A DNA stretch of 64,000 bases from Candidatus Omnitrophota bacterium (lineage in GTDB: Bacteria > Omnitrophota > Gorgyraeia > Zapsychrales > Fredricksoniimonadaceae): positions 600,991 through 664,990 of the forward strand of contig JBGAJA010000002.1 in the NCBI GenBank assembly GCA_044225175.1, in the 5' to 3' direction. Positions 28,199-29,387 of this stretch are shown in pieces (the first letter of the stretch is position 1; each line of letters starts with the position of its first letter). The notes beneath the pieces are model-generated. The model searched no databases and was not told the origin of the DNA. It worked only from the letters and a program-made list of their open reading frames with translations. Made by a program: the position numbers and the translations under genes.

Positions 28199-28426
28199 AT
28201 GGCAACCAAACATCCTAGATTAAATGTAGTTCTGGAACCTGTTTTAATGAAAGGTGTTGAGCATCTAGCTAAGTCTCAGGGATTATCTTTATCAACGGTA
28301 GCTCGTGATTTGATCAAAGAAGCTTTGGAAACCTATGAAGATAGTTGTTGGGATAAAAAAGCTGCTCAACGTCTAAAGAACTATAGCCGTTCCAAGTCTT
28401 TAGCTCATCAACAGGTGTGGGGTTAA
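28199..28426 (+). CDS. Ribbon-helix-helix (CopG/ParD-type) antitoxin
   Basis: 75 aa. RLNVVLEPVLMKGVEHLAKSQGLSLSTVARDLIKEAL is the RHH beta-alpha-alpha pattern. Its stop overlaps the toxin ATG as TAATG. Confidence 0.7.
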   Translation: MATKHPRLNVVLEPVLMKGVEHLAKSQGLSLSTVARDLIKEALETYEDSCWDKKAAQRLKNYSRSKSLAHQQVWG

Positions 28427-28701
28427 TGACTTCTTACAAAGTTCATTACCATTCCCTGATTACTAAAGACATAGCTGGTATTCCTAATAATATGCGTAGT
28501 CGCATCCGTTTGGCTATTGAAGAACGTTTGCAAATAGATCCAATTAATTATGGATTACCTTTACGAAAAAGCTTACACGGTTTTTATAAAATGAGAGTAG
28601 GAGATTATAGAGTAATTTATCAAGTGGTTAAAGATGACATCGATATTTTGATTATAGGACATCGTAAAGATGTATACCCAAAATTATTAAAAAGGCTTTA
28701 A
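28426..28701 (+). CDS. RelE/ParE-family type II toxin
   Basis: KVHYHSLITKDIAGIP...YKMRVGDYRVIYQVVKDDIDILIIGHRKDVY matches the RelE/ParE consensus. The ORF track starts at the GTG at 28417, but the ATG at 28426 overlaps the antitoxin stop. Confidence 0.75.
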   Translation: MTSYKVHYHSLITKDIAGIPNNMRSRIRLAIEERLQIDPINYGLPLRKSLHGFYKMRVGDYRVIYQVVKDDIDILIIGHRKDVYPKLLKRL

Positions 28702-29387
28702 TGAAAATCTACAAAGAATCCATGAAACCAAAAATCATTTTAGTTGTAACCGACCGAGAAAAGAATGCCCAGATCAAGGCTTTGAAGGTTGATGCTTTGG
28801 AGATTCGGGTGGATTTGTTTCGAAGAAGAGATTTGAAATATATTCAAGAAAAGATTAAACAGCGACGAGAAACAAGGCTGCCTTTGCTTTTAACTGTCCG
28901 TAATCAGAAAAAAGAGGGGGCAAGTGCCGATTGGTCCAATGAAGAGAAGCATAACATTTTGCAAATGGCTTTACCTATGGTTGATATGGTTGATATTGAA
29001 CTAAGTTCACCGCTTCTTAAAGAAACATTATCATACGCTCGTAAGTTAAAGAAGAAAACCATTGTTTCCATCCATGATTTTCATCACACCCCGTTACATT
29101 TAGAAAATATTCTTAAAAAAGCGCTCAGTACCAGAGCTGATATCATCAAGATCTCTGCTAAAGCCAATTCTATGGATGATGTCTTTCGTATGATTGAATT
29201 CACTCGCAAAAATCATTCCAAGCACTCTATGATTACCCTGTCTATGGGCTCTCTAGGCAAAATTTCGCGCTTAGTTTTACCTGCCGCAGGAAGTTTATAT
29301 ACCTATAGTTTCCTCAATCAATCCACCGCTCCTGGGCAAATTGATATTAAGACCCTCCAATCACACATAAGTCTATACTATTCATAA
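28701..29387 (+). CDS. aroD: 3-dehydroquinate dehydratase, type I (AroD)
   Basis: Blocks align with E. coli AroD: PKIILVV, DALEIRVDLF, PLLLTVRNQKKEGA, VDMVDIELS, IVSIHDFHHTP, ADIIKISAKA (Schiff-base Lys), ITLSMGSLGKISRL, TAPGQIDIKTL. The ATG overlaps the toxin stop as TAATG. Confidence 0.85.
   Translation: MKIYKESMKPKIILVVTDREKNAQIKALKVDALEIRVDLFRRRDLKYIQEKIKQRRETRLPLLLTVRNQKKEGASADWSNEEKHNILQMALPMVDMVDIELSSPLLKETLSYARKLKKKTIVSIHDFHHTPLHLENILKKALSTRADIIKISAKANSMDDVFRMIEFTRKNHSKHSMITLSMGSLGKISRLVLPAAGSLYTYSFLNQSTAPGQIDIKTLQSHISLYYS

Follow-up and report, generated by a model that had tools for sequence, protein, structure and literature searches.

Does a toxin-antitoxin (TA) pair that sits immediately upstream of a housekeeping biosynthetic gene regulate that gene, or did it simply land there? 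The question is raised by a 64,000-nucleotide (nt) stretch of a Candidatus Omnitrophota genome (GenBank assembly GCA_044225175.1, contig JBGAJA010000002.1, positions 600,991 to 664,990; hereafter the window). Its + strand holds three successive open reading frames (ORFs), at 28199-28426 (75 aa), 28426-28701 (91 aa) and 28701-29387 (228 aa), which encode a predicted ribbon-helix-helix (RHH) antitoxin, a RelE/ParE-type toxin and the shikimate-pathway enzyme AroD. The string TAATG occurs at 28424-28428 and again at 28699-28703. An earlier note on this DNA had read the two strings as consecutive stop/start overlaps, and had proposed either that the pair inserted into the aroD 5' region or that TA autoregulation gates the dehydroquinase step. 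We consider it likely that a mobile RelBE cassette recently inserted into an existing transcription unit in front of a solo aroD, and that it has no dedicated role in shikimate metabolism. The features at the center of the locus are as follows.

28199-28426, + strand: predicted RelB-like RHH antitoxin, 75 aa (sub-threshold RHH and RelB profile matches, and pairing with the toxin)
28426-28701, + strand: predicted RelE/StbE-family toxin of the RelE/ParE superfamily, 91 aa (PF05016 match; 1-nt overlap with the antitoxin stop, as TAATG)
28702-28721, + strand: 20 nt from the toxin stop to the conserved aroD start (open in the aroD frame from ATG 28701 in the window; interrupted by TAA in the related contig L003)
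28722-29387, + strand: aroD, type I 3-dehydroquinate dehydratase, 221 aa (start from homologue N-termini; PF01487, TIGR01093)

Gene order around aroD in the Omnitrophota

The strongest evidence on the origin of this arrangement comes from related genomes. Apart from the window, the TA pair turned up in L001-L003 alone, contigs at 96-100% identity that belong to its own species-level lineage. In the relative L004, whose AroD is 77-79% identical, a homologue of up508 (the 508-aa gene to the left of the TA pair in the window) is followed by a 46-nt spacer, aroD, and a homologue of the giant gene that lies to the right of aroD, without a TA pair. A scan of one genome per species yielded 25 further Omnitrophota aroD loci, and a toxin or antitoxin homologue was present in none of them (0/25); tblastn found no TA homologue in any of the 27 mapped Omnitrophota aroD loci. 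The earlier note had suggested comparing synteny in relatives, and its proposal that the pair inserted into the aroD 5' region is borne out by that comparison: the TA pair is absent from L004 and from 26 other Omnitrophota aroD loci. The backbone downstream is shared as well, with aroD, the giant gene (in some genomes), a CT398-like zinc-ribbon protein and RNase H in the same order in the window.

Across the phylum, dnaG-rpoD directly precedes aroD in 19 of the 27 mapped loci (Pfam-checked), with gaps mostly of 0-30 nt. Judged by this gene order, a solo aroD trailing unrelated genes is the ancestral state in the Omnitrophota and owes nothing to the TA pair. The earlier note described aroD as orphaned from the other aromatic-pathway genes, about 14 kb away. 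The separation is real, with the aromatic cluster about 13-17 kb off, but the TA pair is not its cause, since the solo aroD is ancestral.

These comparisons suggest that the insertion occurred in a recent ancestor of one species-level Omnitrophota lineage, and that the cassette, a predicted RelB-like RHH antitoxin with a predicted RelE-family mRNA-interferase toxin, would have landed in a spacer of ~46 nt between up508 and the solo aroD. Between the window and L003, nucleotide identity is 98.2% in the toxin gene (5 differences in 273 nt; 3 synonymous and 2 non-synonymous codon changes) and 94.9% in aroD (34 differences in 663 nt; 20 synonymous, 9 non-synonymous). Divergence is smooth across the region, and we therefore infer vertical inheritance since a single insertion. 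In a groundwater community, RelE/StbE pairs are among the cargo common to chromosomes and mobile elements, and Omnitrophota dominate such chromosome-mobile element transfer (bioRxiv 10.64898/2026.05.20.726742), which fits a recent acquisition. The locus offers a cleanly dated RelBE insertion into an operon spacer, bracketed by a sister strain with the cassette and a next relative without it, and one that would have left a downstream housekeeping gene joined to its transcription.

Other ORFs lie upstream of aroD in two relatives. In L006, a 454-aa ORF with no Pfam match (4627-5991) takes the place between up508 and aroD that the TA pair has in the window, and the spacer seems to accept insertions repeatedly. 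In L009, an 83-aa ORF with a weak DUF4032 match (3933-4184) lies 13 nt upstream of aroD; it is not of the RelE/ParE type.

The TA pair and its candidate promoter

The three genes of the earlier note are real, and profile matches and conserved pairing support a RelE/ParE-superfamily toxin, AroD and a putative RHH antitoxin. The 91-aa toxin matches Pfam ParE_toxin (PF05016) with 37.3 bits (cut-off 23; E 4.1e-9) and NCBIfam RelE/StbE (TIGR02385) with 27.1 bits, slightly under the cut-off of 27.9. Its closest structures in the PDB are all RelE-type (RelE3 3bpq, 2khe, Rv2866 3g5o and 9g12), and its homologues, which are numerous at 40-66% identity, carry the JGI name 'mRNA interferase RelE/StbE'. 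In a 38-sequence alignment, 14 columns are invariant and 21 nearly so, and the window toxin keeps the residues of all of them, including R47, K48, K55, R57, Y61, R62, H79, R80 and Y84. The antitoxin falls below threshold against RHH_5 (21.1 bits, cut-off 26), RHH_1 (18.6 bits, cut-off 20.5) and the NCBIfam RelB-like model (24.7 bits, cut-off 50). We surveyed 80 metagenomic loci with homologous toxins (L070-L149), and an antitoxin homologue lies directly 5' of the toxin homologue in 64 of them, a conserved pairing that supports the antitoxin role.

The homologous toxins start within one residue of ATG 28426. These N-termini speak against GTG 28417 as the toxin start, and the earlier note's choice of ATG 28426 agrees both with them and with the family-wide junctions, in which the distance from antitoxin stop to toxin start centers on -4 to +4 nt and the identical -1 overlap recurs in 10 loci. 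The antitoxin/toxin TAATG is, on this comparison, a genuine stop/start junction. Overlapping, co-transcribed antitoxin and toxin genes are the norm in type II systems (PMC4803016).

By gene content, the window pair is an ordinary chromosomal type II module of the RelBE kind. As in the RelBE modules of Methanocaldococcus jannaschii (RelBE3) and Mycobacterium tuberculosis (RelBE2/Rv2865-2866), the antitoxin gene precedes and overlaps the toxin gene, the predicted toxin of ~90 aa belongs to the RelE/ParE superfamily and has RelE3 (3bpq) and Rv2866 (3g5o) among its closest structures, and a promoter-proximal repeat element and GGAGG lie upstream. Unlike those modules, the window copy has no recognizable -35 element or clean operator palindrome, and it sits inside a co-directional string of genes, 20 nt before a housekeeping gene. 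When PLSDB plasmids were searched for the toxin, the one match was distant (Wolbachia, 41.5% identity) and is no direct evidence of a plasmid origin.

We compared the 70 nt before each antitoxin start in 62 homologous TA upstream regions, and these define a family promoter of the form TTGACA-N17-TGnTACACT, with GGAGG 6-10 nt later and then the ATG. The TGnTACACT box is present in 54 of the 62 regions, with the TG at -15/-14 in 53 of those 54, and a TTGACA element with at least 5 of 6 matches lies 16-18 nt upstream of the TACACT box in 43 of the 54 cassettes. The spacing implies very short leaders, and the family spacer carries palindromic or tandem GTG(A/T)TACAC half-sites. This strongly conserved promoter/operator signature of a RelBE subfamily, TTGACA-N17-TGnTACACT-GGAGG, is reusable elsewhere. 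The window keeps TGCTACACT and GGAGG of the family promoter at the same spacing; by our own arithmetic, the chance of a motif with 8 specified bases in a 46-nt spacer is ~6e-4. The elements upstream of the window antitoxin are as follows.

28153-28158, + strand: -35 position, reading CTGTTT (2 of 6 matches to TTGACA); abuts the up508 stop TAG at 28150-28152
28164-28191, + strand: imperfect inverted repeat CTCCACTTA / TAGGTGGAG, with arms on either side of the -10-like box and a partial overlap with the Shine-Dalgarno sequence; possible degenerate operator
28173-28181, + strand: TGC-TACACT extended -10-like box, homologous to the family TGnTACACT
28188-28192, + strand: GGAGG, predicted Shine-Dalgarno sequence, 6 nt ahead of the antitoxin ATG; same element and spacing family-wide

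As the -35 position reads CTGTTT right after the up508 TAG, family homology ends at about -35, and the left edge of the cassette would therefore lie there. The window cassette thus appears to have kept only an extended -10-type promoter, which is probably weak because the -35 element is missing.

The earlier note had pointed to 28150-28198 as the place for an RHH operator in the form of an inverted repeat. A repeat does exist there, but it does not rise above chance: an exact arm of at least 6 bp arises in 32 of 100 shuffles, and we rejected CTCCACTTA/TAGGTGGAG as stand-alone evidence for an operator. Comparison with the family told more: the half-sites in the window spacer are degenerate relative to the palindromes and tandem GTG(A/T)TACAC sites of the family.

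These features could also be read as decay. A cassette that lost its -35 element and operator palindrome on insertion would be poorly autoregulated and heading to pseudogenization, in keeping with CTGTTT in place of TTGACA, the degenerate half-sites and the lack of a significant local inverted repeat. Against this, both TA ORFs are intact, every family-invariant toxin residue is kept, and the window and L003 share 98% identity in the toxin, with the few codon changes given above. A toxin without a working antitoxin supply would moreover be lethal, so that expression must remain balanced. We regard a decaying remnant as very improbable, and the cassette does not look to be obviously decaying.

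The aroD start codon

The identity of AroD is well supported, with 167.5 bits against PF01487 (cut-off 22.2; E 7e-49) and 156.6 bits against TIGR01093 (cut-off 139.3). The motifs HDF..TP and KI.AKAN are kept and align with HNF..TP and KIAVKAN of the solved type I dehydroquinase 2egz. H125 and K150 (numbered on the 228-aa ORF) are invariant in 37 AroD homologues; we take them to be the active-site histidine and the Schiff-base lysine, from established knowledge of the family. Exact look-ups of the 228-aa and 221-aa products returned no record.

We aligned the AroD N-terminus with those of 36 homologues (55-96% identical) from Omnitrophota metagenome-assembled genomes. The start of most of these homologues falls at, or within one residue of, M8 of the window ORF (ATG 28722). 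The seven-residue extension before it, MKIYKES, is unconserved, and the N-terminal extensions found in homologues vary in sequence and length. In L003, which has the same TA pair and a 96% identical AroD, the toxin/aroD junction reads TAATGAAAATCTAAAAAGAATCCATG, where a single C-to-A change creates a TAA three codons past the overlap ATG. The L003 aroD can therefore start only at the downstream ATG, which is where its recorded gene call begins.

From these alignments, the conserved aroD start is ATG 28722, 20 nt past the toxin stop. Since homologues start at M8 and L003 carries a TAA, the toxin/aroD TAATG is not a conserved start. Both TAATG strings described in the earlier note are thus present, but the second does not mark the conserved start of aroD; it is probably an incidental in-frame ATG rather than an evolved coupling device.

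A lesser possibility, which we find doubtful, is that translation of aroD in the window strain nevertheless begins at ATG 28701, in frame with ATG 28722, and yields a 228-aa isoform coupled to the toxin by termination-reinitiation, so that the second TAATG would be functional though unconserved. The reading frame from ATG 28701 into aroD is uninterrupted in the window, L001 and L002, and the recorded gene calls of L001 and L002 begin there. AAAGG lies 5 nt before it, and only a weak AAAGAA precedes ATG 28722. The L003 stop codon and gene call, the homologues that begin at or beside M8, and the unconserved sequence and length of the extensions all count against its use. This alternative is compatible with a recent insertion of the cassette and bears on start-codon use alone.

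In L001, a near-identical Logan contig, aroD is broken by a frameshift into two overlapping ORFs (1259-1944). Faulty assembly or sequencing is the probable cause, but a genuine pseudogene is conceivable.

Transcription across the locus and possible regulation of aroD

In consensus scans, we found no terminator and no + strand promoter-like site from up508 to aroD in the window, and no + strand promoter-like site in the spacer of the TA-less L004. At the toxin-aroD junction we found no promoter, no terminator and no notable RNA structure (z = -0.66). A promoter-like TTGGCA-N18-TATACT lies upstream of up508 at 26315. Co-transcription of the TA pair with aroD is likely on these data, and the simplest reading is a single transcription unit, inferred to run from up508 through aroD, into which the TA pair was dropped. 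In our model, aroD would still be transcribed mainly by read-through from upstream, with the site at 26315 as the candidate promoter; transcription would now cross the TA pair, perhaps aided by its weakened, antitoxin-repressible promoter. The TA pair itself would be a selfish addiction module or a defense-type module, without a dedicated role in shikimate metabolism. The earlier note held that relatives without the pair, and with aroD under a promoter of its own, would speak for a neutral recent insertion. The comparison largely bears this out, as relatives lack the pair; the one difference is that no aroD promoter appeared in the L004 consensus scan, where aroD looks like a tail gene reached by read-through.

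Tight packing is common throughout the window. Among 44 co-directional neighbor pairs, 32 are separated by 25 nt or less, 4 overlap by 1 nt and 10 by 4 nt (ATGA), and TAATG overlaps occur elsewhere at 41329 and 19362. Unrelated genes are chained in the same way: a RuvA-like gene joins scpB by TAATG and scpB is followed by pheA after a 2-nt gap (40700-43100), and tyrA-cmk-lepA-lepB (signal peptidase) are linked by overlaps or gaps of 0-2 nt (45732-49715). Judged by these counts, the chaining of the TA pair to aroD is what one would expect locally. In compact genomes such as this one, unrelated genes are chained and overlap at stop and start codons by default, and such arrangements carry little functional meaning alone.

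These observations bear on whether the cassette has captured aroD functionally. Under that alternative, transcription of aroD, and perhaps its translation, depends on the autoregulated TA operon, and conditional cooperativity of the antitoxin-toxin repressor gates the supply of dehydroquinase; aromatic amino-acid synthesis would then, for example, be linked to translational stress. The gap of just 20 nt (or a 1-nt overlap), crossed without a terminator or promoter-like site, counts in its favor, and the arrangement has been kept with intact ORFs in two sub-lineages that are ~5% diverged. There is also a precedent in mazEF-mazG, where a metabolic gene is co-transcribed downstream of a TA pair (PMC4803016). 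Against capture, the linkage occurs in one species-level lineage among the 27 aroD loci, and aroD is downstream of the homologous TA pair in 0 of the 80 family loci, where the downstream genes differ in identity, strand and distance. In the TA-less relative, aroD appears to be fed from upstream without the pair, the cassette promoter is probably weak in the absence of a -35 element, the overlap-ATG reading is knocked out in L003, and this genome routinely chains unrelated genes. We judge functional capture improbable. The earlier note's suggestion that TA autoregulation gates the dehydroquinase step is likewise not supported, given the restriction to one lineage, the 0/80 count and the loss of the overlap start in L003. 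Gating would place this locus among the few natural examples in which a TA module has been recruited for metabolic control, and nothing we found points there.

A mixed alternative is that the host operon now drives the TA pair, which lost its own -35 element on insertion, and that the antitoxin-bound operator and extended -10 box, directly upstream of aroD, modulate read-through into it and add a stress-responsive promoter. If so, the toxin:antitoxin ratio would influence the dehydroquinase step in this lineage, and a core biosynthetic gene would recently have come under the control of a co-opted selfish TA module, in a natural setting. We give this an even slimmer chance than outright capture.

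Several points weigh against recent insertion of a cassette with no dedicated role in shikimate metabolism. The insertion carries no mark such as a transposase, an integrase or a target-site duplication, and the spacers of the window and L004 (77% protein identity) are too diverged for exact boundaries. The arrangement has been kept through ~5% nucleotide divergence, with the toxin better conserved than aroD, which is compatible with a module maintained by selection, through addiction or otherwise, rather than one that is purely neutral. The ATG at 28701, open and with AAAGG upstream, could be usable in the window strain. Finally, promoter use and co-transcription are judged here by consensus scans, and promoter rules for Omnitrophota are not established.

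Comparison with known systems suggests where the locus fits. Like E. coli mazE-mazF-mazG, it has an enzyme gene directly 3' of a type II TA pair, and mazG is co-transcribed with its pair (PMC4803016). Unlike aroD, which is linked in 0/80 loci, MazG is functionally tied to its TA pair, as it acts on guanosine tetraphosphate (ppGpp) and is inhibited by MazEF. Tripartite loci such as paaR-paaA-parE, omega-epsilon-zeta and the TAC chaperone systems also comprise three co-directional genes, with a RelE/ParE-superfamily toxin among the three as a further likeness. The third member of those loci codes for a regulator or a chaperone and is conserved together with the other two (PMC4803016), whereas the window aroD is a housekeeping enzyme gene that predates the TA pair. 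As in the Omnitrophota dnaG-rpoD-aroD arrangement, the window aroD is unlinked to other aro genes and lies a few nt from an unrelated upstream gene; the difference is that its upstream neighbors are up508 and the TA pair, not rpoD. In the dnaG-rpoD-aroD loci, found among L010-L029 (for example L011, 2607-6669), a shikimate gene rides on a macromolecular-synthesis operon.

The remaining features of the neighborhood are as follows.

26626-28152, + strand: up508, a 508-aa ORF, left neighbor of the insertion site
29420-29449, + strand: promoter-like GTGGCA-N18-TATACT before the giant gene, conserved in L003 and L004 as TTGGCA-N18-TATACT
29458-37635, + strand: giant ORF of 2725 aa, right neighbor of aroD
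42039, 43622, 44698 and 45732: pheA, an aminotransferase, DAHP synthase and tyrA of the aromatic cluster

The promoter-like site at 29420-29449 likely marks the end of the aroD-containing unit. Neither flanking protein, up508 or the 2725-aa product, has a match in Pfam, NCBIfam or the PDB. L004 and L006 also have an up508 homologue 5' of aroD (76% and 70% identity, respectively), and homologues of the giant gene adjoin or lie near aroD in L004, L007, L025, L026 and L027. The up508 protein has an N-terminal hydrophobic segment. Further upstream, a repeat-rich ORF of 1616 aa (21373-26223) is followed by a hairpin with a 12-bp stem (26227-26253) that matches the terminator pattern on both strands.

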